Below, piece after piece: positions 1-19,737 of a stretch of 64,000 nt of DNA (positions are counted from its first letter, which is position 1; each line of letters begins with the position of its first letter). The notes under the pieces were generated by a model that made no database searches, was not told the DNA's origin, and saw only the letters and a list, made by a program, of their open reading frames with translations. The translations under genes and the position numbers were made by a program. Origin of the DNA: a virus (lineage: Duplodnaviria > Caudoviricetes); the IMG/VR virus record IMGVR_UViG_3300035675_000001. The stretch is one strand, 5' to 3'.

Positions 1-603
1 CATGACCGGCGCTACGACCAGGCAGTCGCGCTCCTGGAGAAGTATGGCAAAGACCTGGAATGCCTGGCGTTCTCCAGCACCGGCGAACCGTTTTTCAGCC
101 GATACTACCTGCGGCTGATGCGCGAATACCTCTGCCGGGAAAAGCTGCCCATAGCCAACATCCACATTGGCACCAACGGCACCCTGCTCGATGCCAAAAT
201 GTGGGAGAGCTTGAAGTGCAAAGACATGGTTCACCTAATCTGCGTCAGCATTGACGCAGCGACGAAGGAGACCTACGAAAAGGTGCGCGGGCCAAACTGG
301 GACCGGCTGATGGACAACCTGGCCTTCATCAAATCGCTCCACGAATCCAAGGTCGTGCCCTACTTCCAGATCAGGATGGTTGTCCAGGCGCTCAACTGGC
401 GCGAGATGGAGCAGTTCGCCTACCTAGCCTCCACCTTCCTGGCCCACCCGGTTTACCAGCTCGTGTATCCCTGGGGCACGCTGACTGACGCGGACATGAT
501 CTACTACAAGGAGCATCCCGACTACGAGGAGTTCATGACCCACCTGCGGGCCTTCGACAAGAAGTTCCACTGGGTGGAGGCGTATTACCGCCAACTGCTC
601 TGA
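1..603 (+). CDS. Radical SAM protein, 5'-truncated
   Basis: Frame open from base 1; STGEPF, TNGTLL and VSIDAAT..TYEKVRG motifs typical of radical SAM/SPASM enzymes; CxxxCxxC lies outside the window. Confidence 0.75.
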   Translation, partial: HDRRYDQAVALLEKYGKDLECLAFSSTGEPFFSRYYLRLMREYLCREKLPIANIHIGTNGTLLDAKMWESLKCKDMVHLICVSIDAATKETYEKVRGPNWDRLMDNLAFIKSLHESKVVPYFQIRMVVQALNWREMEQFAYLASTFLAHPVYQLVYPWGTLTDADMIYYKEHPDYEEFMTHLRAFDKKFHWVEAYYRQLL

Positions 604-3215: not shown

Positions 3216-3235
3216 GAAATCGGTTCTAAAAAGGC

Positions 3236-4833: not shown

Positions 4834-4853
4834 ATAAATCTGTTCTACGCAAT

Positions 4854-5585: not shown

Positions 5586-5586
5586 A

Positions 5587-5661: not shown

Positions 5662-5665
5662 AAAA

Positions 5666-5741
5666 TGGTGCCCCAAACTGGAATCTCACCAGTGGCCTTC
5701 GCCTTCGGAGGGCGACGCTCTATAGACTGAGCTACTGGGGC
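5666..5741 (-). tRNA. tRNA-Arg(CCG)
   Basis: Loop CT-CCG-AA; T-loop TGAGATT. Confidence 0.9.
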
Positions 5742-5742
5742 A

Positions 5743-5821
5743 TGGCGTTCCTGGCGGGACTCGCACCCGCTAGAGATTCGGCTTGAAAGGCCGACCGCTG
5801 GACGACTTTGCGCTCAGGAAC
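5743..5821 (-). tRNA. tRNA-Glu(TTC)
   Basis: Loop CT-TTC-AA; G73; T-loop TGCGAGT; A8. Confidence 0.88.
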
Positions 5822-5826
5822 AAAAA

Positions 5827-5903
5827 TGGTATCCCCGGTGGGATTCGCACCCACGATCTTCTGGTTGAGAACCAGGCGTGTTGGGCTGCTACACTACGGG
5901 GAC
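5827..5903 (-). tRNA. tRNA-Glu(CTC)
   Basis: Loop TT-CTC-AA; T-loop TGCGAAT. Confidence 0.9.
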
Positions 5904-5907
5904 AATC

Positions 5908-5977
5908 CACGGACAAGGAGAGCGACGTGGGAGGTTTCTCATTAGTGGTAAGATAACCCACATCAATTCGGCCCGTG
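5908..5977 (-). ncRNA. Minimal Y RNA-like RNA (Ro60-binding stem)
   Basis: CACGGGCCGA...GTGGGTTATCT...CCCAC...CCTTGTCCGTG; bulged-C helix and GUUAUCU as in Y RNAs. Confidence 0.7.
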
Positions 5978-5981
5978 AAAG

Positions 5982-6056
5982 TGGTCCCTGGGATCGGTAA
6001 CGCACCGATGTCTCCGGTTTTTCAGACCGGCGCTAATCTATCTCAGCTACCCAGGG
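5982..6056 (-). tRNA. tRNA-Phe(GAA), uninterrupted copy
   Basis: Loop CT-GAA-AA; T-loop TGCGTTA. Confidence 0.9.
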
Positions 6057-6057
6057 T

Positions 6058-6243
6058 TCAAGGCTCCAGCGTTTCCGCGAGCAGGAGGGCTGCTGCGAGA
6101 CGACGCGCCTCCCTGCGCGTCAGATGATGATAGACGGTCTCGCCTGCGGATGAGGACAAACTGACCTTGATGAAATTGGATCGTCGGGTCTTGGAAACCT
6201 CCACCCGATACTGCTTCGCTTTGCTGACAAGACGGTAGCTCAC
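6058..6243 (-). CDS. Hypothetical protein
   Basis: 61-aa ORF; ATGA overlap with upstream gene. Confidence 0.5.
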   Translation of the reverse strand: MSYRLVSKAKQYRVEVSKTRRSNFIKVSLSSSAGETVYHHLTRREARRLAAALLLAETLEP

Positions 6244-6647
6244 TCAGGGAACCGGGGGAGTTTGTGATCGTCAGCCTGCTTCTCGTAATACTCCAGCTTG
6301 GACCGAATATCGTTCAGCACTTTGGCCAGCTCGGCAGCAAAGCTCACTGGCTCCGGTTCCACTTTGGCGTGAATGATGACCTTCAAATGATCGGCTGCTT
6401 TCTTCTGCGCCCGCATCTCGATGCGGGTTGCGCCCGCCGCCCAGGCGAAGAACAGCGAGTTCAAAAACGCCAGGATGTAATGTGCCGAGCTATGGGACGC
6501 CGCGACCTCGGTCAGACGATAGATGGTGATGACCACGATGCCCAGGAACACCAGCACCCAAATTCTCCGCTTCACGATACGGTAGAGCGTCGTCCACACG
6601 TAGAGGACGTAGAGCTGCAACAGGATCGCTATGACCAAAAATGCCAT
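6240..6647 (-). CDS. Membrane protein (3 TM segments plus basic/coiled tail)
   Basis: Three hydrophobic stretches; GTATTTA upstream. Confidence 0.6.
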   Translation of the reverse strand: MAFLVIAILLQLYVLYVWTTLYRIVKRRIWVLVFLGIVVITIYRLTEVAASHSSAHYILAFLNSLFFAWAAGATRIEMRAQKKAADHLKVIIHAKVEPEPVSFAAELAKVLNDIRSKLEYYEKQADDHKLPRFPE

Positions 6648-6673
6648 GCCGGTCTAAATACGCAGGCTGAAAT

Positions 6674-6750
6674 TGGTAGCCGCAGTTGGAGTTGCACCAA
6701 CGACCTGACGCTTATCAAGCGCCTGCTCTGACTAGCTGAGCTACGCGGCC
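6674..6750 (-). tRNA. tRNA-Ile(GAT)
   Basis: Loop TT-GAT-AA; T-loop TGCAACT. Confidence 0.9.
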
Positions 6751-6753
6751 ACA

Positions 6754-6841
6754 TGGCGGCTGGTGCAGGATTTCCACCTGCGCGGGTTTTACCCCGTCCA
6801 CGGTTTTCGAGACCGGAACCTTGGTGCTCGGTCAACCAGCC
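6754..6841 (-). tRNA. tRNA-Ser(CGA)
   Basis: Long variable arm, G73; loop CT-CGA-AA; T-loop TGGAAAT. Confidence 0.9.
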
Positions 6842-6851
6842 GGAAAGATTT

Positions 6852-6975
6852 GACGGACAAGGGGAACCAAGGAGTTTTTGCTACCTCCGAGGTCACGGCA
6901 CATGGAGCCGTGAGTGAGAGTCGAACTCACATCGCTTCATTTACAGTGAAGATAATCCTCAGTAATCGGCCCGTC
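6852..6975 (-). ncRNA. YrlA-type Y RNA enclosing a circularly permuted tRNA-Tyr(GTA)-like domain
   Basis: GACGGGCCGA/TTGTCCGTC Ro stem; ACTGAGGA/TCCTTGGT; CTTCA-CTGTAAA-TGAAG; GTGAG-TTCGACT-CTCAC; TCACGGC-TCCATGT-GCCGTGA. Confidence 0.8.
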
Positions 6976-6979
6976 AAAA

Positions 6980-7067
6980 TGGCGGATGGTGCAGGATTTC
7001 CACCTGCGCTGGTGTTACCCAGTCCTCCGGCTTCCAACCGGGAACCTTGGTGCTCGGTCAACCATCC
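6980..7067 (-). tRNA. tRNA-Ser(GGA)
   Basis: Long variable arm, G73; loop TT-GGA-AG; T-loop TGGAAAT. Confidence 0.9.
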
Positions 7068-7084
7068 AAAAAGTTTACAAAAAG

Positions 7085-7173
7085 TGGCGGAGGGCACAGG
7101 AGTCCAACCTGTTCAGGTTTCACCCTGGCGTCGGTTTTCAAGACCGCCCCGTTCGACGTTCCGGCAGCCCTCC
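7085..7173 (-). tRNA. tRNA-Ser(TGA)
   Basis: Long variable arm, G73; loop CT-TGA-AA; T-loop TTGGACT. Confidence 0.9.
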
Positions 7174-7194
7174 GCAAGAAGGTAGTTAGCGCAG

Positions 7195-7641
7195 ATGCCG
7201 GAAAAGACATTAGCCTATCACCTGCTGCAAAAGTTTGAAGCAGACCGGGAGAAGATCGAGCGATACTCGTCCATAGCGGAACACTGCCCGCTCCCCGCGT
7301 TTATCGCTGGATCAGACGGCATTTCCATCCTCTACATCAACCCGGCCTACCGGGAATTGACCGGACGCAACATCGAAGAACTCCAGGACGGCAAGTGGGT
7401 TACGTCGGTTATTCACCCGGACGATCAGGCGTCAGTTATTGATGCCTGGAAATTGTTTACAAAAACTGTCCAGCGACAGGCTCATCATCACCGCTATGTT
7501 CACGTCGATGGCCGGGTCACGGATGCGGTGACTGTAGTGGACCGGGTTGAAGGCAACGGCTACGTTGGCTTCATCATTCCCCACTGCGGCAAAGAGGACT
7601 GCCCGATGCAACAGTTGGTCCCACTTGGTCACCACACGTAA
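7195..7641 (+). CDS. Stand-alone PAS-domain protein
   Basis: ILYINPAYRELTGRNIEELQDGKWVTSVIHPDD is a typical PAS_3/PAS_4 signature; no output domain. Confidence 0.8.
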   Translation: MPEKTLAYHLLQKFEADREKIERYSSIAEHCPLPAFIAGSDGISILYINPAYRELTGRNIEELQDGKWVTSVIHPDDQASVIDAWKLFTKTVQRQAHHHRYVHVDGRVTDAVTVVDRVEGNGYVGFIIPHCGKEDCPMQQLVPLGHHT

Positions 7642-7642
7642 A

Positions 7643-7718
7643 TGGTGCTCGCGGCAGGAATCTCACCTGCGACCAGCCGCTTAGGAAACGACCGCTCTGA
7701 TAACTGAGCTACGCGAGC
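7643..7718 (-). tRNA. tRNA-Arg(CCT)
   Basis: Loop TT-CCT-AA; T-loop TGAGATT. Confidence 0.9.
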
Positions 7719-7719
7719 G

Positions 7720-7796
7720 TGGCACCCCTGCCAGGATTCCCACCTGGATCAGACCGCTTAGAAGACGGTCGCTCTAATACATTGAGCTACAGGGGC
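7720..7796 (-). tRNA. tRNA-Arg(TCT)
   Basis: Loop CT-TCT-AA; T-loop TGGGAAT. Confidence 0.9.
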
Positions 7797-7808
7797 TTAC
7801 AACTAAAA

Positions 7809-7884
7809 TGGCTGCCAAGACTGGGGACGATCCAGTAACCGCCCGGTTAACAGCCGGGTGCTCTACCAGTTGAGCTACTTGGCA
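7809..7884 (-). tRNA. tRNA-Asn(GTT)
   Basis: T1-A72, G73; loop CT-GTT-AA; T-loop ATCGTCC. Confidence 0.9.
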
Positions 7885-7890
7885 ATGAAA

Positions 7891-8106
7891 TCAGGCCGGA
7901 ATCGGCGTCGAGCCAGGGATGAACGGGGCTTTGGTGCCGCCGCCTCCACTGGGGTTGGCCGGATTCGGAATGAGCGTGGACTCGGCAACGTAATCGGCAG
8001 CGGTCCCGCCGCCGCCATCAGCCTTGGCCGAGTTTGGAACGAGGGTCGCGCCTGGAGGCGTCGTATCGCCCGTCCGAACCGGCGCTGGAATGATCGTCAT
8101 GTCCAT
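7891..8106 (-). CDS. Small Pro/Gly-rich protein with internal duplication
   Basis: TLVPNSAKADGGGGT / TLIPNPANPSGGGGT; GTAGTTA 6 nt upstream. Confidence 0.55.
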   Translation of the reverse strand: MDMTIIPAPVRTGDTTPPGATLVPNSAKADGGGGTAADYVAESTLIPNPANPSGGGGTKAPFIPGSTPIPA

Positions 8107-8122
8107 CGCTCTTAACTACAAA

Positions 8123-8199
8123 TGGTCAGCGCGGAGGGCTTCGATCCCTCGGCCTCCTGGCCCCGAACCAGGCGCTCTGCCAAGCTGAGCTACGCGCTG
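8123..8199 (-). tRNA. tRNA-Pro(CGG)
   Basis: C1-G72, A73, G37; T-loop ATCGAAG. Confidence 0.9.
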
Positions 8200-8206
8200 A
8201 TGAAAA

Positions 8207-8282
8207 TGGTCGGGCTGGCCGGGTATGATCCGGCGACCTTCTGGCCCCCAGCCAGACGCGCTGCCAACTGCGCTACAGCCCG
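8207..8282 (-). tRNA. tRNA-Pro(GGG)
   Basis: C1-G72; loop CT-GGG-GG; T-loop ATCATAC. Confidence 0.9.
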
Positions 8283-8286
8283 AAAA

Positions 8287-8361
8287 TGGTCAGGGCGGGG
8301 AGTTTCGCAATCCCGGCCTCCTGGTCCCAAGCCAGGCGCTCTGCTTCTGAGCTACGCCCTG
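8287..8361 (-). tRNA. tRNA-Pro(TGG)
   Basis: C1-G72; loop CT-TGG-GA; T-loop TGCGAAA with a T53.C61 mismatch. Confidence 0.85.
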
Positions 8362-8387
8362 ATCGCCGTGTAGTTACGGTGAAAGTT

Positions 8388-10454
8388 ATGGAAATCACAT
8401 ACGTTCCAGACCCGTCCAAAGCGGATGGCAAACCGGTTGTTGCCGAGGTTGTTGCCCTGGGCACGACTGTTGTTCAATTCGCCACGCCACAACAGGTTTA
8501 CGTGACGGGCGGGACGCTCGCCACGAACGTCCAGTTCACCGGCTCAATTTCGACCGACATCGGCAACGTCAAAATCGAAGACCAGAACGGAAACTACGCC
8601 GAAATGCCAGCGGCGAGTGACGCCAAGACTGGAGCCAACAAAGCCCTACTCGTTCAGCACGTTGACGAAACCGGAACTCCGCTCCGCCAATCGACGCAGG
8701 TCAGCATCATGCAGAACCAGGGGACGCTCGCAACAAGCGCCCTCCAGGCTACCGGAATCGCACTGGCCTCGGTCATCCTGAACAACCAGGGCACCCAGGC
8801 CACAGCAGCTCTCCAGCAAGCAGGCAACGGCGCTCTGAGCGTAATTGTAAACAACCAGGGCACCCAGGCCACGGTCGCAGCTCAGGATAGCCAGACAGCG
8901 ATCCTGGCCGTGATGATGAACAATCAGGGCACGCTGACTCCGGCAACGGACTCGACGACCCTGACGGCGGTCATGAACAACCAGGGGACGCAGGCGACCT
9001 CGGCCAAGCAAGATGCCACGAACAACCTGCTGACGGTCATCATGAACGCGCAGGGGACGCAGGCGACCAGCGAGGTCGCTGAAAGCATTACGTTCTCGGC
9101 CATCCTGAACAACCAAGGAACCCTGGCGACCAGCGCCCAACAGACCGCCGCACAGGCGACGCTGACCACGGTCATGAACAGCCAGGGGACACAGAGCACG
9201 GCGCTGCTCTCGCCCATCCTGAATGCTTTCGGAACTCTCGCTACGGCGGCAGCTCAAGCCAACGGAAATACAGCTCTCCAAAATCTGCTGACGCCCATCC
9301 TGAACGCCCAGGGCACGCAGAGCACTGCCCTGCTGTTGCCCATCCTGAACAACCAGGGAACTCAGGCGACCAGCGCCAACCAGGAGACCCAAATCACGGC
9401 GCTGAACACGCTGATCGACACCCTGCGGTCGGTCGATACGGTTGGGACCAACCTCGAAGTGACGCTGTTCAATGGCGTTTACGCAGTCGGACCCAGTGTG
9501 GCTGCCAACGTCAACGGCTACACCCGGCACACCGTCCAGCACGTCATCATGAACGGCAGCGTGGCCGCGCACATCGAGACCAGCCTTGACGGCACGACCT
9601 GGAATACCGAAGCGGTCGATACGGCTTCAAATCTTCAACGGCTCACGGGAGCCTGCAAATACATCCGCGCCGTTTACATGGGCGGAGCGGGCACGCTCAG
9701 CACCTTCCTGAACTCGGCAGCCGGAAACGGAGGCGGAGCGCCCAACGGCGCAGGCCAAGCCGAGCTTTGCATCGTCGGCACCGTTGCCAGCACCCTGGGG
9801 TCAGCCGTGGCTTTCGAGACGGGAGGGGCCAACAGCTTAGGCTTCCACTACGAGCCGCCTGCCGGTTCGACTTCGATTTTTGAAGGTTCGTGGGACGGCA
9901 GCCATTGGGTTGACATAACGCTGCGCCAAATGGGAGCGCACGGCTACACAAGCATCACCGATGACACCCACCAGGATTGGGTCGGTTCATGCGCGACATG
10001 GCGCTATTTTCGCCTGCGAATCACCCAGGGCGGCACAGGTGTTGGAGTTATCAGAGGCAGGTTCAGCTATGCTCCCAGCACGATTGAAGGCGTCGAAAAC
10101 CAGGCGATGCCCCACCGCATCGGCGCATCATCGCAATCAAAGAGCTTTTCCTTTACTGGCGTCACAAGCAACGGGACCATTTGGGCACCCACTACATCTT
10201 ACCACCGGCTCTACATCACGGACTTGTTCTTCACGGTCGATGCTACGACTACTGTCATCTTCTCCGATGGCAGCAACGCAGAAGGCAAACTCGTCTTCAA
10301 GGGCAAATTCAAACCCGCGTCTGGCGAAAGCTCCTATGTCCCGGCTGCTTTTTCACTCCCGCACGTATTCACCGGACCCAACCGGGCGCTGATGTTCACG
10401 CAAAGCGGAGGCGCAGAAGTTGACGGCGTGGTTCACGGCTACGAAGCAGAATAA
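8388..10454 (+). CDS. Repeat-rich fibre-like (probable virion) protein
   Basis: Many (N/S/A)QGT(Q/L)AT repeats followed by beta-rich C-terminal domains; start moved out of tRNA-Pro (in-frame GTG at 8379 also possible). Confidence 0.7.
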   Translation: MEITYVPDPSKADGKPVVAEVVALGTTVVQFATPQQVYVTGGTLATNVQFTGSISTDIGNVKIEDQNGNYAEMPAASDAKTGANKALLVQHVDETGTPLRQSTQVSIMQNQGTLATSALQATGIALASVILNNQGTQATAALQQAGNGALSVIVNNQGTQATVAAQDSQTAILAVMMNNQGTLTPATDSTTLTAVMNNQGTQATSAKQDATNNLLTVIMNAQGTQATSEVAESITFSAILNNQGTLATSAQQTAAQATLTTVMNSQGTQSTALLSPILNAFGTLATAAAQANGNTALQNLLTPILNAQGTQSTALLLPILNNQGTQATSANQETQITALNTLIDTLRSVDTVGTNLEVTLFNGVYAVGPSVAANVNGYTRHTVQHVIMNGSVAAHIETSLDGTTWNTEAVDTASNLQRLTGACKYIRAVYMGGAGTLSTFLNSAAGNGGGAPNGAGQAELCIVGTVASTLGSAVAFETGGANSLGFHYEPPAGSTSIFEGSWDGSHWVDITLRQMGAHGYTSITDDTHQDWVGSCATWRYFRLRITQGGTGVGVIRGRFSYAPSTIEGVENQAMPHRIGASSQSKSFSFTGVTSNGTIWAPTTSYHRLYITDLFFTVDATTTVIFSDGSNAEGKLVFKGKFKPASGESSYVPAAFSLPHVFTGPNRALMFTQSGGAEVDGVVHGYEAE

Positions 10455-10458
10455 TTTT

Positions 10459-12417
10459 ATGAGCCTACTCGACATCAATCAGACTCAGGTCGCAGCAGTC
10501 ATGGCCCCGGTTATCAATAACCAGGGGACACAGGCGACGGAGCAGACGCTCATCACCGTCATGAACAGTCAGGGCACGCAGGCAACTGCTGCCCTCCAGG
10601 CCAACAGCAACGCTCTCCTGACCACCATCATGAACAACCAGGGGACGCTCGCCGATTACGACGACGCGACTCTCCAGGCGGTCATGAACAACCAGGGGAC
10701 GTTGGCCACGAGCAGCAAACAGGACGCTCAAACTGCCATCCTGGGTGCGATGCTGAACAACCAGGGAACACTGACTCCTGTAACTGGTGGAGCCACAGAA
10801 ATCACTTTGGTCCGACTTGCTAATGACCAAGGCACGTTGGCCACGAGTGCGAATCAAGCCGCGAGCAATGCCTTGTTAACGGTCGTAATGAATGACCAGG
10901 GCACATTGGCGACCAGCTCCTATCAGGCGGTCCAGCTCGAACTCCTGGGCTTGATTCTGAACAGCCAGGGAACTCAAAACACGTCCAGCCTGGCGACCAG
11001 CGCCAACCAGGCGCAGGCCAACAGCTCCCTCACAGTCATTCAGAACAACCAAGGAACGCAGGCCACGGCATCGAACCAAAGCACTGAAATCAGCCTGCTC
11101 AGCCTGATCCTGAACGCCCAGGGGACTCAAGGCGAAGGGCTGAACGCACTCTCACAACAGCAAGCGGACACGGTAACGACTTACGGACCAACCGGAACTC
11201 TAGCCTCAGCGCGAGTGGCCACGCTGATGACGACTGATCCGAACTCGGTAAGCGTTGACGCATTTGGTCGGCTGCGCGTCAGCAACGCGGACTACCGGTT
11301 TGACGGCCAGCTTGTTTACCAGGTCAACGCTGACCTATGGGACTCCGCCTGGAACAGCACTGGCACGGTGACCTATGACCGCAAGAACCGAATGGCTCAG
11401 CTCACTTGCGCGGCTAACGGCACCAGCGTCATGCAGAGCCACTATCACGTCCCCTACACGCCCGGACGCGGCCAGCTCGCTTTCGTCACGTTTGCCGGAA
11501 CGGCTGCGCCAGCCGAAAACACCTACCACCGGGTAGGCTACTTCGACGAGACAAACGGTATTTTCCTGGAGCGCACCAGCGCGGGAGCAAGCTTGACACT
11601 CAAAAGCTCAACCGATGCGGGGTCCGAGACAGTTTTACAGGCAAACTGGAACATCGACAAGATGGACGGCACCGGCCCCAGCGGGTTAACGCTCGACCTG
11701 ACCAAATCTCAAATCCTGTTTATCCAGCTCCAGGCGCTCTACATCGGTCGTGTAATCGTCGGCTTCGACATCGACGGCGTTGCCTGGCCGGTCCATCAGT
11801 TCACGCACGCCAACAAGTTCGTCAAGCCCTACATTGGCAACGCGAGCTTGCCGGTGCGCTACGAAGTGGGTTCAACGGGCGTCAATACCGCCCAGCTTAA
11901 TCCCGTCTGCGCCTCCGTCATCAGCGAAGGCGGCGGGCCGCTGATCGACATTCCGGCCCGCACATTCACCGCAGGCAACGGTGCAACACCCATCAGCGTA
12001 AACGCCCGGAGACCCGTGCTTTCAATCAGGCCCAAAGCGCAGTTTAACCAAAACCAGAACGAAGGCATTGTTCTGCCGTCTGACCTGTCGATCCGAAATT
12101 CGACTGCGGACATCTACGTTGAAGTCATCCGCAACGCCGTGCTCACGGGAGCATCCTGGACAAGCGTGGATGCGGTCAACAGCGTTTGTGAATATGATGT
12201 CGCGGCAACTGCCGTCAGCGGAGGCCAAACGGTTTTCTCAGGCTACAGCAACGTCTCGTCAGGGCTATCAACAAGCATCAAGGACAACCTGCTCAGCCGC
12301 CTGACCATCGTCTATTCAGAACTTCTTCAAACAGCGGACACGCTCACCATCGTCTGCACATCTCTCGGCGGTGCTGCTTCAACTGTCGCCGCGCTTAACT
12401 GGAAAGAAATTCGTTGA
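10459..12417 (+). CDS. Repeat-rich fibre-like protein, paralog of the upstream gene in its N-terminal half
   Basis: NNQGT(Q/L)AT repeats, then VSVDAFGRLRVS and a beta-rich C-terminal domain of a kind seen in phage virion proteins. Confidence 0.7.
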   Translation: MSLLDINQTQVAAVMAPVINNQGTQATEQTLITVMNSQGTQATAALQANSNALLTTIMNNQGTLADYDDATLQAVMNNQGTLATSSKQDAQTAILGAMLNNQGTLTPVTGGATEITLVRLANDQGTLATSANQAASNALLTVVMNDQGTLATSSYQAVQLELLGLILNSQGTQNTSSLATSANQAQANSSLTVIQNNQGTQATASNQSTEISLLSLILNAQGTQGEGLNALSQQQADTVTTYGPTGTLASARVATLMTTDPNSVSVDAFGRLRVSNADYRFDGQLVYQVNADLWDSAWNSTGTVTYDRKNRMAQLTCAANGTSVMQSHYHVPYTPGRGQLAFVTFAGTAAPAENTYHRVGYFDETNGIFLERTSAGASLTLKSSTDAGSETVLQANWNIDKMDGTGPSGLTLDLTKSQILFIQLQALYIGRVIVGFDIDGVAWPVHQFTHANKFVKPYIGNASLPVRYEVGSTGVNTAQLNPVCASVISEGGGPLIDIPARTFTAGNGATPISVNARRPVLSIRPKAQFNQNQNEGIVLPSDLSIRNSTADIYVEVIRNAVLTGASWTSVDAVNSVCEYDVAATAVSGGQTVFSGYSNVSSGLSTSIKDNLLSRLTIVYSELLQTADTLTIVCTSLGGAASTVAALNWKEIR

Positions 12418-12502
12418 CGTAAGCCAGTCACGCCGGTCGCTGGCATAACCAACGACCGGCATGGCAGGGGCGTGTTGCTGCTCTGCTTCATCAGCAGGAC
12501 AA

Positions 12503-12579
12503 TGGCGGGCACGACCGGACTCGCACCGGCTGACTTCGCCGTGACAGGGCGCTGATTCGACTCCTTCATCTCCGTGCCC
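12503..12579 (-). tRNA. tRNA-Asp(GTC)
   Basis: G73; loop CT-GTC-AC; T-loop TGCGAGT; G8. Confidence 0.9.
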
Positions 12580-12585
12580 GTAAAA

Positions 12586-12673
12586 TGGTGGGAGGCGCTG
12601 GTTACGCTCCAGCCGCCACTACCCGTGATGTTGAAGGCACCGGTTTTACAGACCGGCCACGGGACCGCCTCCC
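12586..12673 (-). tRNA. tRNA-Tyr(GTA)-like RNA lacking a D arm
   Basis: Acceptor GGGAGGC/GCCTCCC, A-CCA; CCGGT-CTGTAAA-ACCGG; only 10 nt between acceptor and anticodon stems; T-loop AGCGTAA. Confidence 0.75.
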
Positions 12674-12675
12674 AT

Positions 12676-12764
12676 TTACCCAGGTCCAAACCACTGTGGC
12701 TCTGACCCCGTTACTTCCGCTGTGGCGCGTAGGGGCCTTCCTCCACTCTTTCTGGACTGGGCAA
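12676..12764 (-). ncRNA. Candidate rod-like structured RNA
   Basis: TTGCCCAG/CTGGGTAA, TCCAGA/TTTGGA, GTGG/CCAC, GGCCCC/GGGGTC nested stems. Confidence 0.5.
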
Positions 12765-12775
12765 GTAGCTAAAGC

Positions 12776-13297
12776 ATGAAATTGATACCGGTTCTCATGG
12801 CGTGTTTGGTTCTTTCAGGCTGTATGATCGTCAACGTGAAAGAACGGGGCTTTCCGCCCGAACACCAAATTGTAAACTTTGATCGGGTGACCAGCGACCT
12901 CTACCGGGGCGCTCAACCGACCATCGCCAGCCTCGATTACCTCAAGTCGTTGGGGATCAAAAGCGTCGTCTGCCTGCGAGAACCTTCTGACATTCTGCCG
13001 GGCGAACCAATATCGGTCTCGGCGCTCGGCCTGCGCTTCGAGAACCTGCCGATGGACGGCGTGACGGCTCCCAGCGAAGCGGACATAGACAAGATGCTGG
13101 ACGTGATCGACGCGCTGCCCAAGCCGGTCTTCATCCACTGCCAGTTCGGCTGCGACCGCACCGGGACCGTGATCGCCTGCTGGCGCATCAAGCATGGCTG
13201 GGACAACGACGCAGCCTACCGGGAAGCCAAGCAATACGGCATCTCGCCGCTGCTCCCGGCGCTTCATCATCTCATCAAGACCTACAAGAAAAAGTAA
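12776..13297 (+). CDS. Cys-based protein tyrosine/dual-specificity phosphatase, lipoprotein
   Basis: HCQFGCDRTG (CX5R), LYRGAQP; lipobox LVLSGC. Confidence 0.85.
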   Translation: MKLIPVLMACLVLSGCMIVNVKERGFPPEHQIVNFDRVTSDLYRGAQPTIASLDYLKSLGIKSVVCLREPSDILPGEPISVSALGLRFENLPMDGVTAPSEADIDKMLDVIDALPKPVFIHCQFGCDRTGTVIACWRIKHGWDNDAAYREAKQYGISPLLPALHHLIKTYKKK

Positions 13298-13385
13298 CGG
13301 GCAAGGGTTGGCGTCGGAGATGCCTGGTTGCCCAGGCGGTTTCCATACCAATGATAGAAGATAACCGACATCCATTCGGCCCGTT
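13296..13385 (-). ncRNA. Y RNA-like RNA (Ro60-binding stem)
   Basis: AACGGGCCGA...GTCGGTTATCT...CCGAC...CCTTGCCCGTT; inner hairpins TTCTAT/ATGGAA and GCCTGG-GCAA-CCAGGC. Confidence 0.75.
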
Positions 13386-13387
13386 GA

Positions 13388-13490
13388 ATCACCACCGGTA
13401 TTGCAACCCGCACCGCACATCAGCACTTCTTCGGCCTCGACGGCTGTGCTTTCGCTGGTCATGGGAGTCGAACCCATTGTTCACGGTGAT
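13388..13490 (-). ncRNA. tRNA-mimic RNA with a 5'-proximal canonical T arm (YrlA-like order)
   Basis: ATCACC/GGTGAT closing stem; ATGGG-TTCGACT-CCCAT; further hairpins; no anticodon arm or CCA end. Confidence 0.6.
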
Positions 13491-13498
13491 GAAAATTA

Positions 13499-13571
13499 TG
13501 GCACGGAGTGTGGGTGCTGCCCCCACCAGGACTGGTTTTGGAGACCGGTCTGCACGGCTGGTGCCCTCCGT
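13499..13571 (-). tRNA. tRNA-Trp(CCA), atypical compact fold
   Basis: G73-CCA; loop CT-CCA-AA; D arm GCAC-CAGCC-GTGC; extended anticodon stem; T-loop GGCAGCA. Confidence 0.8.
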
Positions 13572-13572
13572 A

Positions 13573-13666
13573 TTCAGCACCCCCTTTTACGCTGACGGTC
13601 AGAGTCGCGTTCACAGGCTCGCACGACCGGCCTGCTGCCGTCCCACGGATAAGCCAAGGTGCCGAA
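13573..13666 (-). ncRNA. Candidate pseudoknotted RNA
   Basis: TTCGGCACC/GGTGCTGAA; GACGG/CCGTC; CAGGC/GCCTG whose loop GGTCGTG can pair with downstream CGCGACT. Confidence 0.5.
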
Positions 13667-13668
13667 AT

Positions 13669-13744
13669 TGGTGGAAGCGCCGGGACTCGCACCCGGAACA
13701 TCGACGATGCCATCGTCGCGCTCTACTGATTGAGCTACGCCCCC
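13669..13744 (-). tRNA. tRNA-Ala(GGC)
   Basis: G3.T70, A32-T38; T-loop TGCGAGT. Confidence 0.9.
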
Positions 13745-13751
13745 GAAAGAG

Positions 13752-13843
13752 CCGGGCCGAGTTTGCTTCGAGGTTGCAACCCCGTTGCCTTATCGTGCGG
13801 GATGTGCGCCCGCCCTCCGTTCATGAGACGGAGTGCTCCCCGG
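13752..13843 (-). ncRNA. Permuted tRNA-like RNA with a CAT anticodon-like arm
   Basis: CCGGG/CCCGG closure; CTCCGT-CTCATGA-ACGGAG; GCGGG-CGCACAT-CCCGC; no CCA end. Confidence 0.5.
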
Positions 13844-13854
13844 ATACCGACGTT

Positions 13855-13928
13855 TGGTGGAATCGGAGGGAGTCCCACCCTCATCTCCCGCGTGCGAGGC
13901 GGGCGCTCTAGTGCTGAGCTACGACCCC
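13855..13928 (-). tRNA. tRNA-Ala(CGC)
   Basis: G3.T70; loop CT-CGC-AC; T-loop TGGGACT. Confidence 0.9.
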
Positions 13929-13933
13929 AAAAA

Positions 13934-14797
13934 ATGAAACCGCGCTGCGTCTCGATCTTTCCGACCAACCACTGCAACGCGCACTGCTACTACTGCGCCT
14001 ACCAGACCAGTTACGCCTTCGCGGATGCGACCACGATGTGCCGCAAGACGGACCAGCTCTCACGCGAGCTGCTGGCCAAGGCGCTGGACGAGGCGAAAAT
14101 CTGCAACAACATCGAAATCTCTGGCGGCGGCGAACCCCTTTGCCATCCCGACTTCGCCTGGTTTGCCAGGGAGGTCGTGGCCCGTGGGATCGGGGCCAAG
14201 CTCATTACCAACGGCGTGCTGCTCACCGGCGAGCTGCTGGAAGTCTCCGCCCAGCTCAGCTACGTGGAGTTCTCGATCAATTACTACGACCACCTGAGCT
14301 TCGAGGCCAACCGCAGTATGCCTCGTGGCTGGTTTGAAACCGTGACGGCCAACGTCAGAAATCTGATGAGCAGCCCGCACTCCTGCGTGATCGGGGCCAA
14401 GGTCGTGCTCACAGGCCGGAACTACCAGACGCTCCCGCAGATCAAGCAATACCTGGGGTCGCTGGGAATCCATCGCCTGGTCGTGACGCCCAGCTACAGC
14501 CGAGACGCGAGCGACGTGCCCCCGCCTGCGGTGTTTGGGATGGACCGGATCGCGCACGTCAAACCGAAGTGCGCTTACTGCCAGCGCCGAATCGACCATC
14601 CGGTCATCGGAGCTGACGGGAAATACTACGCCTGCTGCTACTTCACCTACATGCCGTCCATGCAGATCGGCGACCTGGCCACGCAGAGCTTGTCAAACGT
14701 GTTAGACAACGGACCCGTGTTCGACCAGGGCCTCTGCTGCCGGGTCGAGCAGGTGATCGCCGACTACCGGCGCGGGGTCGTCACTGCGTTTCCGTAA
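13934..14797 (+). CDS. Radical SAM protein with C-terminal Cys-rich (twitch/SPASM-like) region
   Basis: CNAHCYYC, SGGGEPL, TNG, YACCY; start moved out of tRNA-Ala. Confidence 0.85.
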   Translation: MKPRCVSIFPTNHCNAHCYYCAYQTSYAFADATTMCRKTDQLSRELLAKALDEAKICNNIEISGGGEPLCHPDFAWFAREVVARGIGAKLITNGVLLTGELLEVSAQLSYVEFSINYYDHLSFEANRSMPRGWFETVTANVRNLMSSPHSCVIGAKVVLTGRNYQTLPQIKQYLGSLGIHRLVVTPSYSRDASDVPPPAVFGMDRIAHVKPKCAYCQRRIDHPVIGADGKYYACCYFTYMPSMQIGDLATQSLSNVLDNGPVFDQGLCCRVEQVIADYRRGVVTAFP

Positions 14798-14799
14798 AA

Positions 14800-14928
14800 G
14801 GAGCCATGCGGCGGGATTTGAACCCGCGCTCTGGATACTCGTGTCACCTTTCTCCAGGATTTGGTGCGACGCGCCACTTGGCCTCCCCGAAGTGTGACAC
14901 CCCCAGGTCGGTTGCAGTCGCCACAGGC
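14800..14928 (-). ncRNA. tRNA/tmRNA-like RNA (129 nt) with canonical T arm
   Basis: GCCTGTG/CGCATGGC acceptor-like stem with one bulge; CGAC then CTGG..GTGTCAC/GTGACAC..CCAG; GCGGG-TTCAAAT-CCCGC; ends TCC. Confidence 0.6.
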
Positions 14929-14934
14929 ATAAAT

Positions 14935-15010
14935 TGGTGGAAGTGATGGGACTCGCACCCACAACCTCAAGCTTGCAAAGCTCGCGCTCTACTAATTGAG
15001 CTACACCCCC
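14935..15010 (-). tRNA. tRNA-Ala(TGC)
   Basis: G3.T70; loop TT-TGC-AA; T-loop TGCGAGT. Confidence 0.9.
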
Positions 15011-15012
15011 AA

Positions 15013-15135
15013 TCCGAAACCGCCTGCTGTTCGGCAAGCCTCACTCCCCACAGCCGTAGAGGGACCGGTTTCCCCGGCTGAGCGTAGCGGCATTCAGCCA
15101 GGCGGAAGTCTCTTTCAACCGCCCAGCTTATCGGA
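15013..15135 (-). ncRNA. Candidate multi-hairpin structured RNA
   Basis: TCCGA/TCGGA closure; GGGCGG/CCGCCT; GGCTGA/TCAGCC; CCGG-GGAAA-CCGG. Confidence 0.45.
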
Positions 15136-15141
15136 AAATAT

Positions 15142-15266
15142 ACGGAGGCCGGTATCCAGCCCGGACTCACGGCCTTGAACGGAACGCCTGTTGCGGTCAG
15201 CGAAATCGCCTCCTACCAGGTGTCCACCGCAGCCGGGAGCTTCGCATTGGGTTGCGAGCACTCCGC
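15142..15266 (-). ncRNA. Candidate tRNA-like structured RNA
   Basis: GCGGAG/CTCCGT closure; TCGCA-ACCCAA-TGCGA; TGCGGT/ACCGCA; CCGG-GCTGGATA-CCGG. Confidence 0.45.
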
Positions 15267-15272
15267 GTTAAA

Positions 15273-15346
15273 TGGAGCGGGTGAGCGGTAACGATCCGCC
15301 GTCTCAGCGTTGGCAACGCCGTATTCTGCCATTGAACCACACCCGC
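15273..15346 (-). tRNA. tRNA-Gly(GCC)
   Basis: T73; loop TT-GCC-AA; T-loop ATCGTTA. Confidence 0.9.
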
Positions 15347-15351
15347 AGAAA

Positions 15352-15429
15352 TGGGGTGGACGACCGGACTTGCACCGGCACCGGGCAGGTTCACAACCTG
15401 CGGCTACCACTATTTGAGCTACGTCCACC
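15352..15429 (-). tRNA. tRNA-His(GTG)
   Basis: G-1:C73 encoded; loop TT-GTG-AA; T-loop TGCAAGT. Confidence 0.9.
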
Positions 15430-15433
15430 ATGA

Positions 15434-15494
15434 TGGTTTTAGGAAAACCCATCGTTTTACTGTTCCACTAAAACGATGGGTTTTCCTAAAACCA
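15434..15494. repeat. Perfect 26-bp inverted repeat with 9-nt spacer
   Basis: tggttttaggaaaacccatcgtttta-ctgttccac-taaaacgatgggttttcctaaaacca. Confidence 0.95.
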
Positions 15495-15547
15495 AGAAAT
15501 CAAAGCCCCACGGCCTCCACCTATGTTTGTGGATTGGGCCGTGGGGC
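15494..15547 (-). terminator. Possible intrinsic terminator
   Basis: GCCCCACGGCC/GGCCGTGGGGC stem followed by TTTGATTTCTT (interrupted U tract). Confidence 0.5.
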
Positions 15548-15669
15548 GTTTCAACAAAGAACACACACTATGACAAGTTTTCCTCTTGAACCCGCAAGTC
15601 TTCCACGGCGGTCTTCGCTGCATTATCGGCGCAGCTCTCGGCTCCCTGCGGAGCATGTGTGCTAAAATG

Positions 15670-15704
15670 AAAAAACCCTGCTACTCTTTCGGGTAGCAGG
15701 GTTT
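15670..15704 (-). terminator. Intrinsic terminator (attenuator-type)
   Basis: AAACCCTGCTACCC-GAAA-GAGTAGCAGGG-TTTTTT. Confidence 0.8.
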
Positions 15705-15723
15705 CAAAAATCTGGTTCGTCCG

Positions 15724-15870
15724 TTATCCTGCTACCTCCTGGCCTGGTTCGAGTGTGCTACGGACAGCAAAGCACAACGTGGCCTTATCCCACCCTTGAA
15801 TCGGGGCAGAATAATTCGCCCGACCCGCAGTGGCGGGCTTCGGCGACACGTTATGTTTCATTGACATCAT
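15724..15870 (-). CDS. Putative attenuator leader peptide (48 aa)
   Basis: Starts about 7 nt after a -10 box; last codons carry GGTAGCAGG, complementary to the terminator 5' arm. Confidence 0.5.
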   Translation of the reverse strand: MMSMKHNVSPKPATAGRANYSAPIQGWDKATLCFAVRSTLEPGQEVAG

Positions 15871-15877
15871 CGCGGAC

Positions 15878-15906
15878 ACTCTAAATCCGTTTTGTTTACG
15901 GTGCAA
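15878..15906 (-). promoter_or_regulatory. Sigma70-type promoter facing the tRNA array
   Basis: TTGCAC-17 nt-TAGAGT. Confidence 0.6.
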
Positions 15907-15973
15907 GCATTTTCTCAACTTTTTTTCGTTTACACAACCCATTGAGCGCCAAGGCTCAACAGGCGGTGTGCGA

Positions 15974-17983
15974 TTATTCCTCGAAATTTTTTGTCACGAC
16001 GGGCATCGGAACACCGAGCATTTGATACAATTCCTCCTCCGAAATGACCCGCGTGCCGTGCTTCATCGCGCCTGCGGCCTTGTTGTTGCCGCCGCCAACA
16101 CCTTGCACCAGAAAATCCACCTTCTTGGTGACCTGCCCCTTGACGATGCCGCCGTGCTGCTCGATCAACGCGCTCACGTCATCGCGGCGACCGCTCTGGA
16201 GAGCGCCGGTGATGCAGAAGGTTTTTCCGCTCAGCACGCCTGCGGCTTTGCGGTCCTCCTCAAAGTAGAACTCGTGGCCCGCCAGCGCCGTCAGCTCGGT
16301 CTCGATGTTCTTGTCCAGCCAGGTCATGAGGCTGATGGTGCGCGATTCTTCGATCAACTCCTGGACTTCATCCTGGTTGGCCGACATCTCGCTCAAGCTG
16401 CTGAACCGCCCGGCCAAAGTCTGGCAGGTGACCTTGCCGATCTCGTCGATATTCAGCGCCGACAGCTTGCGCCAGAGCGGTGCGGACTTGGCCTTCTCCA
16501 ACCCCTCGCGCATTTTCTTGGCCGTGGCCGGTTTCAAAAAGCTGAAATCCTTGATCGCATACAGGTCCGAAAGCTTCTTCACGTCGGCCTTGTCCATCAG
16601 CGTCCGCACCGTCGTTTCACCACAGCCGTCAATGTCGAGAGCGTCCTTGCCCACCGCGTAAACCAGCCGAGCAAACACCTGGTCGTCGCAGTCAGGATTG
16701 ACACAGTAGGAGTGAACCATGCCTGGGGGCCGCTCCAGGGGAGTCGAGCAGCATGGGCAGGTCTTGGGCATCTGGTAGCTCTTGCCGTGATTCTTCTTGG
16801 TCGGCGAAGGCCGCGCCAGGCCCACGATCTTCGGGATCACTTCGCCGCTGCGCTGGACGAGCACGTAATCGCCCACGTCAATACCGAGACGGTCCAGCTC
16901 ATCCTGGTTGCAGAGCGAAGCGCGGGCGACCATCGCCCCACCCAAGTTCACCGGCTGCAATTCCGCAACCGGCGTCACCTGACCGGTCTTGCCAACCTGG
17001 ATGATGACGGCGTTCAGGCGCGTCTCCTTGGTCTCAGGCGGGAACTTGAAAGCCGCGCCCCACTTCGGGGACCGCTCCCCTTCGCCCAGGTCGCGCTGCT
17101 TTTCCAGGGAGTTGACCTTTATGACCAGTCCGTCCGTATCCATGTCCAGGGCCTTGCGGTAGCCGTCCAGGTGTTGGATCGCGGGCATCAGCTCCTCGTT
17201 GGCCAGACAGGTCATATAGGGCAACCCAGCCATGTCCTGGCGGACGGGGAGGGTCAGGGTGCTGGGGAAGCCCAGGCTTTCGAGGTATTCCAGCAGGGCC
17301 TCCTGGGTGGTCACGGCTGCTGGCAGGTCGGAAGGAACGCTGTAGGCGGCAAAGCTGAGCTTACGCTTGGCGACCTCCCTGGAATCTTTGAGGAGCATAC
17401 TGCCGGAAGCTCCATTGCGCGGGTTAGCCAAGCGGTCGCCTTCGGACACGCTGGCGTTGTAGGCGTTGAACGAGGTCAAGCTCCAGTAGATTTCGCCTCG
17501 GACCTCGATGGTGACCGGCTTTCGGAGAACCAGGGGGATGGAGTGGACCGTCCTGGCGTTCTCGGTCACGTCTGCGCCCTCGGTGCCATTTCCACGGGTT
17601 ACCGCCTGGATGAGCTGGCCCTCCTTGTAGCTCAGGTGAAGGCTGAGGCCGTCGATTTTCATTTCCAGGATAACCTCCTGGTCCTCCAGGCCGTCGAAAA
17701 ATGTGGCGACTTCCTCGGCATTGTTGACATTATCCAGCGAGAGCATCTTGACCTTGTGCCGGATTTTTCGTAGCCCGTTGGGAATCGGGCAGCCCACGCG
17801 CATGGTGGGTGAGTTGGCGTCGGCCATTTCCGGGTGGTCTCGCTCCAGGGCAACCAGCTCACGGAACTTCTTGTCATACTCCTGGTCGGAGATGGACGGG
17901 GCGTTCGCCACGTAGTAGCGAAACGAGTGATCGGTCAGCTCCTTGCGGAGCGCCAGAATCTTTTGTGCGTCTGTCATGCTCAT
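15974..17983 (-). CDS. ligA: NAD-dependent DNA ligase
   Basis: EMKIDG (KxDG), TRGNG, SGEVIPK, Zn finger CPCC...C, C-terminal BRCT. Confidence 0.95.
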   Translation of the reverse strand: MSMTDAQKILALRKELTDHSFRYYVANAPSISDQEYDKKFRELVALERDHPEMADANSPTMRVGCPIPNGLRKIRHKVKMLSLDNVNNAEEVATFFDGLEDQEVILEMKIDGLSLHLSYKEGQLIQAVTRGNGTEGADVTENARTVHSIPLVLRKPVTIEVRGEIYWSLTSFNAYNASVSEGDRLANPRNGASGSMLLKDSREVAKRKLSFAAYSVPSDLPAAVTTQEALLEYLESLGFPSTLTLPVRQDMAGLPYMTCLANEELMPAIQHLDGYRKALDMDTDGLVIKVNSLEKQRDLGEGERSPKWGAAFKFPPETKETRLNAVIIQVGKTGQVTPVAELQPVNLGGAMVARASLCNQDELDRLGIDVGDYVLVQRSGEVIPKIVGLARPSPTKKNHGKSYQMPKTCPCCSTPLERPPGMVHSYCVNPDCDDQVFARLVYAVGKDALDIDGCGETTVRTLMDKADVKKLSDLYAIKDFSFLKPATAKKMREGLEKAKSAPLWRKLSALNIDEIGKVTCQTLAGRFSSLSEMSANQDEVQELIEESRTISLMTWLDKNIETELTALAGHEFYFEEDRKAAGVLSGKTFCITGALQSGRRDDVSALIEQHGGIVKGQVTKKVDFLVQGVGGGNNKAAGAMKHGTRVISEEELYQMLGVPMPVVTKNFEE

Positions 17984-18043
17984 AAAAATCGTTCTTTCCA
18001 TCGAAGATGACGGCTCAGATCGAAAAAGTAAACAAAATTGTGT

Positions 18044-18496
18044 ATGATGCGTGACGTGTTCCTGGACCTGCTCTACGCCTGCGGAGGAATCTCCGGTTTG
18101 GCGATCACCATTGCCATCGTGAAAGCTGCCCACGATTACGTGCGCGGAAAGATGTTTCAGCCTAAGCCACAGGTATTTCTGACTACGGCCACGGCAGGCA
18201 CCACGGCGGGCGCAACGGCCACAACCAGCCTATCGGCCAACTTCATCGCTCCGGCTCCACAGCCGGTTCAGACAGCGCCGGTCCTGGTGCAAAAAGTCGA
18301 GCCAGTTGACAGCACTTTTCCCCCTCCCGAACCCCGCGAATCCGTCCCGCCCCAAAATGAGTTTCTGCTGGAGTGCGGCAACTGCCACAAGAACATCAAA
18401 ACCCCGCCCATCAAGGTGGACGCGAAGGGGCCGGGAAAAACAGAGATGCGCTACCGCTGCGAGCACTGCGGAGCAACGGTAGCCGTGAAAGTTTAG
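18044..18496 (+). CDS. Membrane-anchored protein with C-terminal zinc ribbon
   Basis: N-terminal TM segment; CGNC...CEHC. Confidence 0.65.
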   Translation: MMRDVFLDLLYACGGISGLAITIAIVKAAHDYVRGKMFQPKPQVFLTTATAGTTAGATATTSLSANFIAPAPQPVQTAPVLVQKVEPVDSTFPPPEPRESVPPQNEFLLECGNCHKNIKTPPIKVDAKGPGKTEMRYRCEHCGATVAVKV

Positions 18497-19737
18497 CCGA
18501 TCAGCGCCCGAACGATTTCCTGGGCGCTCTCCCTCACGTCGTCGCCTTCGGCCTCGGCCATGTCAGCCTTGACCCGCTGCGCCAACTGCCGGAGCATTTG
18601 CATTCCTCGCGGCGATTTGGCGTAAAGCTCCTTCATGAAGCCGTTGAACTCATCCACACCCATCCGCTGGATGTAGGAGTAAAGGTGCATGGCCAGCTCG
18701 CGCTCATTCTCGGCGTCGGTGATGGCCACAAACTGATCCCAAAGCTGCGGTCCCAGGATCATGTGCCAGGCTTCCATGTCCACCAGGTCCGCCTTGCTGA
18801 GCACTTCCTGGCGCTCCTCCGGGTCACGAGGCAGGCTCGGCAAGGATGCCAGCTCGGTCAGACCCTTGATAATCTCTTGGATCAAGACCGGGAAGTGCAT
18901 GGCCTGGGCAGTGACCTTGGGCATCCGCCGTTGTGGTGGGGGCTGCTCCTCCGGCTGTTCAGCCTGCTCTGGCTCCTCCTCATCGGTGAAGCCGACTTTC
19001 GCCGAGCCTACCTGTAGCTCAGCTCGTGCCCCGGCAATGACGGCGCTTTGCGGGAACATCCAGTAGCCGATCTCGGTCGAGACCATGAGGGTGCCGTATG
19101 CCTTGCGAAGACCAGGATGAATGCGGTCGAGGGCCTGCCCGCCCAGCTCAAACAGGTAGTTGTTGCTGACGGCTGACCCCTGGATCAAAGCGTTGGTAAA
19201 GTGCCGCCGCTGGATCATCTTCTCGATCCACTGCTTTTCGGCTGGCGTGCGCTCCTGGCTCAGCGGCTTTTGAGCCTCCGGCTCATCGGAAGTCATGCCG
19301 CCTTCCATGCTCGGCTCCTCGGTCAGCTCCGCGTCAATCTGGATGCGGTTGGCCTCGTAAGCCTTCTTGGCGCTCTTGAACTCCGGCAGCTCGAAGACCA
19401 GCTCGATAGCCAGGGCCTCCAGCTCCTCCTTGTGAGTCGCCTCGGCCTGGGCGATCAGGCGCATGGACTGAATCAGCTTTTGCTGGATCGTGCCGAGCGC
19501 CTGGCGCGTGAGGGGGACGCCGAGATACTGCTGGCCTTTCTGGAGGATTTTCTGCCACTGGCGGGTCGCCAGGACTTCCTCGTAGTTGGTCGCGTGCTCC
19601 CCTGGCCCGGCCCGGTGTTCCGGGTAAGCAGGGTGACCTCCCAGCGGGTGCGTCCTACCGGCAATCGCCTGGTGCTTTTCCGGGTGGATCAAGCCGCTGG
19701 GATCGTCGATTGCCTCGATGATCTCCCAGGCTTTCAT
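18493..19737 (-). CDS. Hypothetical phage protein (414 aa)
   Basis: Long ORF with coding-like composition; RRHFTNALIQGS segment. Confidence 0.7.
   Translation of the reverse strand: MKAWEIIEAIDDPSGLIHPEKHQAIAGRTHPLGGHPAYPEHRAGPGEHATNYEEVLATRQWQKILQKGQQYLGVPLTRQALGTIQQKLIQSMRLIAQAEATHKEELEALAIELVFELPEFKSAKKAYEANRIQIDAELTEEPSMEGGMTSDEPEAQKPLSQERTPAEKQWIEKMIQRRHFTNALIQGSAVSNNYLFELGGQALDRIHPGLRKAYGTLMVSTEIGYWMFPQSAVIAGARAELQVGSAKVGFTDEEEPEQAEQPEEQPPPQRRMPKVTAQAMHFPVLIQEIIKGLTELASLPSLPRDPEERQEVLSKADLVDMEAWHMILGPQLWDQFVAITDAENERELAMHLYSYIQRMGVDEFNGFMKELYAKSPRGMQMLRQLAQRVKADMAEAEGDDVRESAQEIVRALIG

Follow-up and report, generated by a model that had tools for sequence, protein, structure and literature searches.

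Attenuators of the trp type control amino-acid operons in enterobacteria, and include trpL, hisL, leuL, thrL, pheL and the multivalent leader of ilvGMEDA. In these systems a short frame lies near the promoter and an intrinsic terminator precedes the regulated genes, while the 5' strand of an antiterminator is found at the end of the frame, so that a ribosome that reaches the stop codon leads to termination and one that stalls upstream leads to read-through. Stalling attenuators that respond to translation inhibitors have been found by Term-seq, among them the bmrCD and vmlR leaders of Bacillus and the lmo0919 leader of Listeria, which act on chromosomal resistance or efflux genes. Here, the slowing of a ribosome on a short frame opens the antiterminator and thereby reports general translation stress. 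T-boxes are a further antiterminator/terminator platform that reports on tRNA status, but they are not translated and bind uncharged tRNA directly. With regard to phages, tRNA genes are, to our knowledge, usually treated as passively expressed.

In Anabaena sp. PCC 7120, the trn operon is a horizontally acquired extra tRNA array whose expression is induced by impaired translation (PMC8421152). Its regulation depends on direct repeats within the promoter, and attenuation, a leader or a terminator are not mentioned for it (PMC8421152). An earlier note on the DNA analysed here had cited this array as a parallel; its induction by translational stress stands, but its control runs through the promoter repeats and not through attenuation (PMC8421152). 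In the literature, the coverage of which was incomplete and does not prove absence, no account of leader-peptide attenuation of tRNA genes was found.

The window, a stretch of 64,000 nucleotides of a phage genome with a G+C content of approximately 59%, carries a long array of tRNA genes on the minus strand. Between the gene of an NAD-dependent DNA ligase (18133-15974, minus strand), the upstream neighbour of the leader, and tRNA-His(GTG) (15352-15428, minus strand), the first gene of this array, lies a module that is probably a ribosome-mediated leader-peptide transcription attenuator heading the first tRNA block of the phage. Slow decoding would then probably raise the transcription of the tRNA region. 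The same proposal had been made in the earlier note on the basis of a promoter, an ATG, a 48-codon ORF, a 9-nt complement, two terminators (T1 and T2) and a GCCGTGG heptamer, all of which are indeed present on the minus strand where it had placed them.

The module shares with the trp-type attenuators the short frame near the promoter, the intrinsic terminator before the regulated genes and the position of the antiterminator strand at the end of the frame, with the same predicted outcomes for a ribosome at the stop codon and for one that stalls upstream. Unlike them, it would regulate phage tRNA and small-RNA genes in place of biosynthetic enzymes, and its frame presents 20 amino acids and 41 codons where a run of a single codon would be expected. 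Moreover, its mRNA appears to be leaderless or nearly so, and its fold without a ribosome predicts read-through and not super-attenuation. As in the bmrCD, vmlR and lmo0919 leaders, ribosome slowing on a short frame would open the antiterminator in response to general translation stress, although the output here is the phage's own decoding machinery and kinship in sequence with those leaders is not to be expected. The likeness to Anabaena trn consists in an extra tRNA array that is induced by impaired translation in that operon and is predicted to be so here. The module would also report on tRNA status, as T-boxes do, but through a leader that is predicted to be translated. Searches with Rfam (cmscan at the gathering threshold for the whole window, and at E <= 1 for 8300-16100) returned only tRNAs and chance-level matches, and the families Trp_leader, His_leader, Leu_leader, Thr_leader and T-box RF00230 had no match in the window leader or in the leaders of the related loci L169 and L171 described below.

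The promoter-like site (15878-15906, minus strand) has a -35 hexamer TTGCAC at 15906-15901, a 17-nt spacer and a -10 hexamer TAGAGT at 15883-15878. It matches 7 of the 12 consensus positions and was not listed by the promoter scan. The pattern TTGnnn-16..18-TAnnnT has only 17 occurrences in 128 kb of strand (approximately one per 7.5 kb), and the stretch that precedes the site is A or T at 18 of 25 positions. The leader ORF (15724-15870, minus strand) comprises 48 sense codons and a TAA stop (15726-15724), and its ATG at 15870 lies 7 nt past the -10 hexamer, a spacing from which a leaderless or nearly leaderless mRNA is predicted. An alternative ATG at 15942 keeps the frame open and would give 72 codons; the added codons run across the promoter and are not kept in L001, the relative that can be aligned with the window over the entire leader. 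The leader peptide has no match in Pfam or PHROG and no called homologue, and gene callers called the frame in none of the relatives. The leader as a whole folds far better than its shuffles (z -10.5).

The last four codons of the leader ORF contain the proposed antiterminator 5' strand, GGTAGCAGG (15728-15736, minus strand), of which the segment CCTGCTACC in the 5' arm of T1 (15700-15692, minus strand) is the exact 9-nt complement. T1 (15664-15705, minus strand) has a 13-bp stem (15705-15672) and a loop with CGAAAG, followed by six U; with -21.5 kcal/mol and z -7.1, it is the strongest terminator-like site in positions 1-19000. The frequency of such complements was assessed on both strands of 161 sequences, which held 159 terminator-like hairpins, by recording the longest exact complement of each 5' arm within the 70 nt upstream. 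Complements of at least 8 nt were found only for the T1 of the window (9 nt) and for the T1 of the relatives L006/L008 (10 nt); among the remaining hairpins, three had a complement of 7 nt and five one of 6 nt. The antiterminator strand and the stop codon are themselves enclosed by a hairpin (15719-15765, minus strand) that is closed by GTCCGT (15765-15760) and ACGGAC (15724-15719) and may act as an anti-antiterminator or a pause element. This closing stem recurs with other sequences in the relatives, as GCGCCC / GGGTCGC in L001 and GGTCGCC / GGCGACC in L008.

According to the proposed mechanism, RNA polymerase would start at the sigma-70-like promoter, and a ribosome would load on the AUG, placed at the very 5' end or directly beside it, and translate the 48-codon frame, whose last four codons would serve as the antiterminator 5' strand and pair with the 5' arm of T1. 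A ribosome that keeps pace, and stands on the last seven or so codons or on the stop codon while T1 is being made, would prevent the antiterminator, so that T1 would fold and transcription would end. Should the ribosome be absent, slow or stalled within the first 41 or so codons, the antiterminator would form first, and the polymerase would continue into the structured RNA, T2 and the tRNA genes. We infer the translation of the frame, the kinetic coupling and the extent of the read-through into the tRNAs.

The folds of the RNA are consistent with this scheme. In nascent-RNA folds without a ribosome, the antiterminator prevails over the closing-stem hairpin. When a ribosome is masked in the folds of the window leader, the pairing of 15736-15728 with 15700-15692 survives with the A site at any position up to codon 41; with the A site from codon 42 to the stop, it is lost and T1 forms. 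The two alternative helices are similar in strength (antiterminator, -14 to -18 kcal/mol; T1, -14 to -19 kcal/mol), and these folding results are thermodynamic and not kinetic. In all 11 distinct leaders that were compared, the nascent RNA that ends with the 3' arm of T1 has a minimum-energy fold in which the 5' arm is paired with a segment within the final 2-10 codons of the ORF. A terminator equivalent to T1 is present in every variant, and the three-way complementarity between the end of the ORF, the 5' arm of T1 and its 3' arm is retained across the variants despite their differing sequences. The proposal in the earlier note that the end of a translated frame acts as an antiterminator against T1 is thus well supported by the comparison with the relatives and by the folds. 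In two of the subgroups, 2b and 2c, 16-32 nt separate the antiterminator strand from the stop, and a ribosome parked on the stop codon would therefore not cover this strand.

The relatives of the window module were reached by two routes, of which the first was the ligase. The ligase family occurs on contigs of 190-260 kb, and the leader comparison made through it covers the IMG/VR contigs L001 and L006/L008, with approximately 25 closer ligase relatives (up to 80% identity) outside it. In L001, a 238-kb contig with a ligase that is 63% identical, the same module stands before tRNA-Gly; the ligases of L006 and L008 are 45% identical, and these two contigs are identical to one another in the module region. 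The tRNA genes come after the ligase gene in L001 and in L006/L008, as they do in the window. L001 has a promoter TTGTCA-17-TACGGT at the position aligned to that of the window, and its stop codon is co-located with that of the window (TAG in L001, TAA in the window). The indels between the two within the frame measure 6, 6, 3 and 3 nt, while those past the stop codon measure 1, 2, 8, 2 and 4 nt. The antiterminator match of L001 is 11 nt long, and its terminator stem is weaker. L008 has little sequence similarity to the window; it presents a promoter-like site TTGACT-17-TATCGT and a frame of 43 codons, the stop codon of which lies two bases past a 10-nt stretch complementary to the T1 5' arm of this same leader. 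The three strands of L008 thus all differ from those of the window and yet match each other, and the arms of T1 covary.

A search of metagenome contigs with the ligase returned only bacterial LigA, at up to 38% identity, and searches of genome contigs found no close relative. Among GenBank phages, there was no relative of the leader, none of the ligase above 37% identity and none of the group-2 module.

The second route was a pattern derived from three leaders (GGATAR, a gap, CGAAAGR, a gap and GGNTTTTT), which was run on IMG/VR. It matched 45 stretches against approximately 28 expected by our own estimate, and six of these form subgroup 2a of a second group of unrelated, AT-richer phages with the same layout as the window. 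Several features of the 2a loci stand outside the pattern, including a near-perfect TTGACA-17-TATAAT followed by seven bases and an ATG, the same 7-nt spacing between the -10 hexamer and the ATG that is found in the window. The frames of 37-39 codons, which end in GGA TAA, and the upstream complement of the terminator arm were likewise not part of the pattern. Of the five 2a loci that extend far enough, four carry an array of 14-16 tRNA genes in the same orientation, which begins 300-450 nt past the match; in the fifth, L174, the tRNAs on that strand start only after approximately 1.5 kb. The sequence of L188 ends shortly after the match. A 17-nt motif taken from the downstream RNA of group 2 gave access to further variants, with approximately half of its matches being chance coding sequence. 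These are subgroup 2b, with a T4-type late promoter motif and frames of 41-47 codons, and subgroup 2c, with a frame of 58 codons. In total, ten further variants of the module were found in at least three phage lineages in IMG/VR, with ORFs of 37-58 codons. Wherever the sequence continues far enough downstream, the module is nearly always observed just upstream of tRNA genes, and its place at the head of tRNA arrays, also claimed in the earlier note, is thereby borne out.

Between the leader and the tRNAs, the group-2 loci contain a conserved RNA of approximately 115 nt, in which some 40 consecutive positions are invariant (L169:1758-1934, L171:3930-4095, L208:6482-6647, L215:12293-12482 and L217:4100-4309, the last two on the minus strand, and others). 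Two helices of this RNA show covariation, and it is likely to form a pseudoknot. The hairpin that comes after it varies at the tip, and the tip of L217 bears a tRNA-like T arm. The RNA has no match in Rfam, nor does it match the RNA between T1 and T2 in the window. An ORF of approximately 55-60 codons with a purine-rich ribosome-binding site of its own is found between T1 and the conserved RNA in L171 (3764-3925), in L174 and in all 2b loci, and the switch would accordingly also control a small protein gene in these phages.

The way in which the leader frame has diverged differs from that of the neighbouring gene. Between the window and L001, the ligase genes differ at 172, 130 and 374 first, second and third codon positions, respectively, and 227 of the 437 codons for identical amino acids carry a synonymous change. 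The corresponding values for the leader frame are 10, 14 and 12, with a synonymous change in 5 of 30 such codons, and the group-2 leaders show the same lack of a third-position bias. The even distribution of substitutions indicates that the leader peptide is not under ordinary protein selection. At the same time, the frame is open in all 11 variants, and only 3-13% of composition-matched shuffles stay open. Taken from the sequences, this is the pattern that would be expected of a frame that needs to be translated and whose product is irrelevant.

The codon content of the window ORF is unusually diverse. All 20 amino acids are represented (P ~0.03), and the 48 codons include 41 distinct ones, compared to a mean of 33.5 in the shuffles that stay open (P = 0.0003). 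None of 4334 windows of 48 codons from 39 long ORFs of the phage itself reached 41 distinct codons (mean 27.7). The frame has no run of one regulatory codon, and clustering of regulatory codons was not found. With all amino acids and 41 codons, the frame would gauge general decoding capacity and not the supply of one amino acid. All 20 amino acids also occur in the leaders of L001, the L208 type, L215/L220, L226 and L217, and 19 in those of L008 and L169, while the other 2a variants have 15-18 amino acids and an ordinary codon diversity; a general gauge would thus seem to fit the window well and most of its relatives moderately. The sensing of damaged or depleted host tRNA, as envisaged in the earlier note, is suggested by a single line of evidence, namely this diversity of codons and amino acids. 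As a separate observation, one Trp codon (UGG) occupies the same aligned position in the 16 leader peptides of the window, L001, L008 and 13 IMG/VR loci, and groups 1 and 2a end in Gly-stop (GGA followed by TAA or TAG). The aligned Trp or the Gly-stop end could affect the behaviour of the ribosome at the end of the frame.

Downstream of T1, the segment up to T2 (15551-15663, minus strand) is structured, non-coding and conserved, with six compensatory pairs between the window and L001. Its hairpin loops are conserved, and a GU-rich stretch just before T2 is kept and can be recognised in L008 too. The segment belongs to no Rfam family, and an 18-nt motif derived from it matched only unrelated coding sequence and the contig of L001 itself. 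A homology of this RNA to that of group 2 had been suspected by eye; it was dropped since a covariance model of the group-2 RNA (R1), run with filters off, gave no significant match in the window or in L001. Two other candidates were discarded: ACGAGAG as a sarcin-ricin loop, for which there is no supporting stem, and the conserved GGGUGG as a T-box-like element, for which Rfam gave no support.

T2 (15494-15550, minus strand) is a hairpin of -33.6 kcal/mol with a stem at 15550-15502 and a weak U tract at 15501-15494. It is kept in L001 with a better U tract, and L008 has a hairpin with another sequence at this position. The heptamer GCCGTGG (15603-15609, minus strand) had been put forward as an antiterminator for T2. 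This part of the earlier proposal does not hold, as a 7-nt upstream complement is at chance level (3 of the 159 terminators, approximately 2%), and the heptamer is located in the 5' strand of a covarying hairpin. Furthermore, its position is not conserved: the 7-mer of L001 is another one and belongs to the opposite strand of the hairpin, and L008 has no complement of at least 5 nt.

Two scans of the window found no sigma-70-like site between T2 and tRNA-His, which leaves the leader promoter as the only recognisable one for the first tRNA block (15428 to approximately 12500). T2 and a near-perfect palindrome with arms of 29 nt are interposed between T1 and tRNA-His, and read-through of T1 alone may thus not reach the array. 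The palindrome (15434-15494, minus strand) lies 5 nt before tRNA-His and folds with -42.8 kcal/mol (z -11.4). It is absent from L001, and its arm has no match in IMG/VR. tRNA-His is missing from L001 as well, where the array opens with tRNA-Gly(GCC). The palindrome could be an RNase III-type processing site or the scar of an insertion of tRNA-His. In subgroup 2a, a perfect TTGACA-17-TATAAT stands between the module and the first tRNA, so that the module may control the array only in part. The tRNAs of subgroup 2b start 20-160 nt past the module with neither a promoter nor a terminator in between, and the leader transcript must therefore run into them. Control of the array by the module is probable, may be partial and differs between lineages. 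Further inside the array of the window, a sigma-70-like site TTGACG-17-TATCTT (6949-6977, minus strand; 9 of 12 positions) is located approximately 200 nt upstream of tRNA-Ile and probably acts as an internal promoter. A leader-type ORF paired with a terminator was not seen at this site, nor were further leaders found before the other tRNA blocks of the window.

The conservation of the T1-T2 segment with its compensatory pairs, the very stable T2 with its U tract (a better one in L001), the perfect sigma-70 promoter directly before the first tRNA in 2a and the presence in the phage of at least one recurrent motif near gene starts that is not of the sigma-70 kind would all agree with a switch at T1 that is real but mainly controls the structured RNA, as a small RNA with its 3' end at T2. 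Transcription of the tRNA array would then start chiefly at a promoter of its own, of unrecognised type. We regard this as unlikely because no promoter-like site lies between T2 and tRNA-His, because the 2b tRNAs follow the module directly and because the module adjoins tRNA arrays in the same orientation across lineages. A second alternative would be an untranslated RNA switch, with a ligand, a protein or a tRNA binding the 5' domain and the open frame being incidental. It is difficult to reconcile with a frame that stays open in every variant at a rate that few shuffles attain, with four out of four indels relative to L001 that are multiples of 3 when those after the stop codon are not, and with an ATG at the predicted transcript start in two lineages; there is also no T-box or other Rfam family. 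The high nucleotide conservation without third-position bias, the strong structure of the leader and the invariant UGG and conserved nucleotide blocks common to the lineages speak in its favour. We judge it improbable.

The frame could, conversely, be an ordinary small protein gene with a terminator of its own, and the complement of the terminator arm would then have no regulatory role. Small phage genes are common, and the Trp along with a few other residues aligns in all 16 peptides. However, non-synonymous changes are at least as common as synonymous ones, neither a protein family nor a called homologue was found, and the three-way complementarity is kept with different sequences in the variants and seen in none of the 156 other terminators, which makes this reading very improbable. 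The leader-peptide attenuator can be extended into a broader proposal, which is possible and which we put forward tentatively: a leaderless test frame covering almost all codons would gauge overall decoding capacity and set the transcription of the phage tRNA set and of the linked structured RNA, as a homeostat common to many unrelated phage lineages that may counter tRNA depletion or host defences that cleave tRNA.

If the attenuator reading is true, phages would carry a test frame with which they measure the decoding capacity of the cell, and would match their own supply of tRNA to it. Leader-peptide attenuation would be extended from amino-acid biosynthesis to the translation machinery, with a link to the work on anti-phage defences that target tRNA, and the module would constitute a compact and portable sensor of translation stress.

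With regard to expression signals elsewhere in the window, a classical Shine-Dalgarno sequence is missing from most of its genes. The motif GTAGTTAAGG, with up to one mismatch, is present in 9 copies (window positions 8110, 8370, 20657, 36030, 51832, 54318, 56172, 58628 and 62514) against 0.75 expected. In at least three cases, 2 nt separate the end of the copy from a following start codon, and the motif may represent a phage-specific promoter or translation signal.
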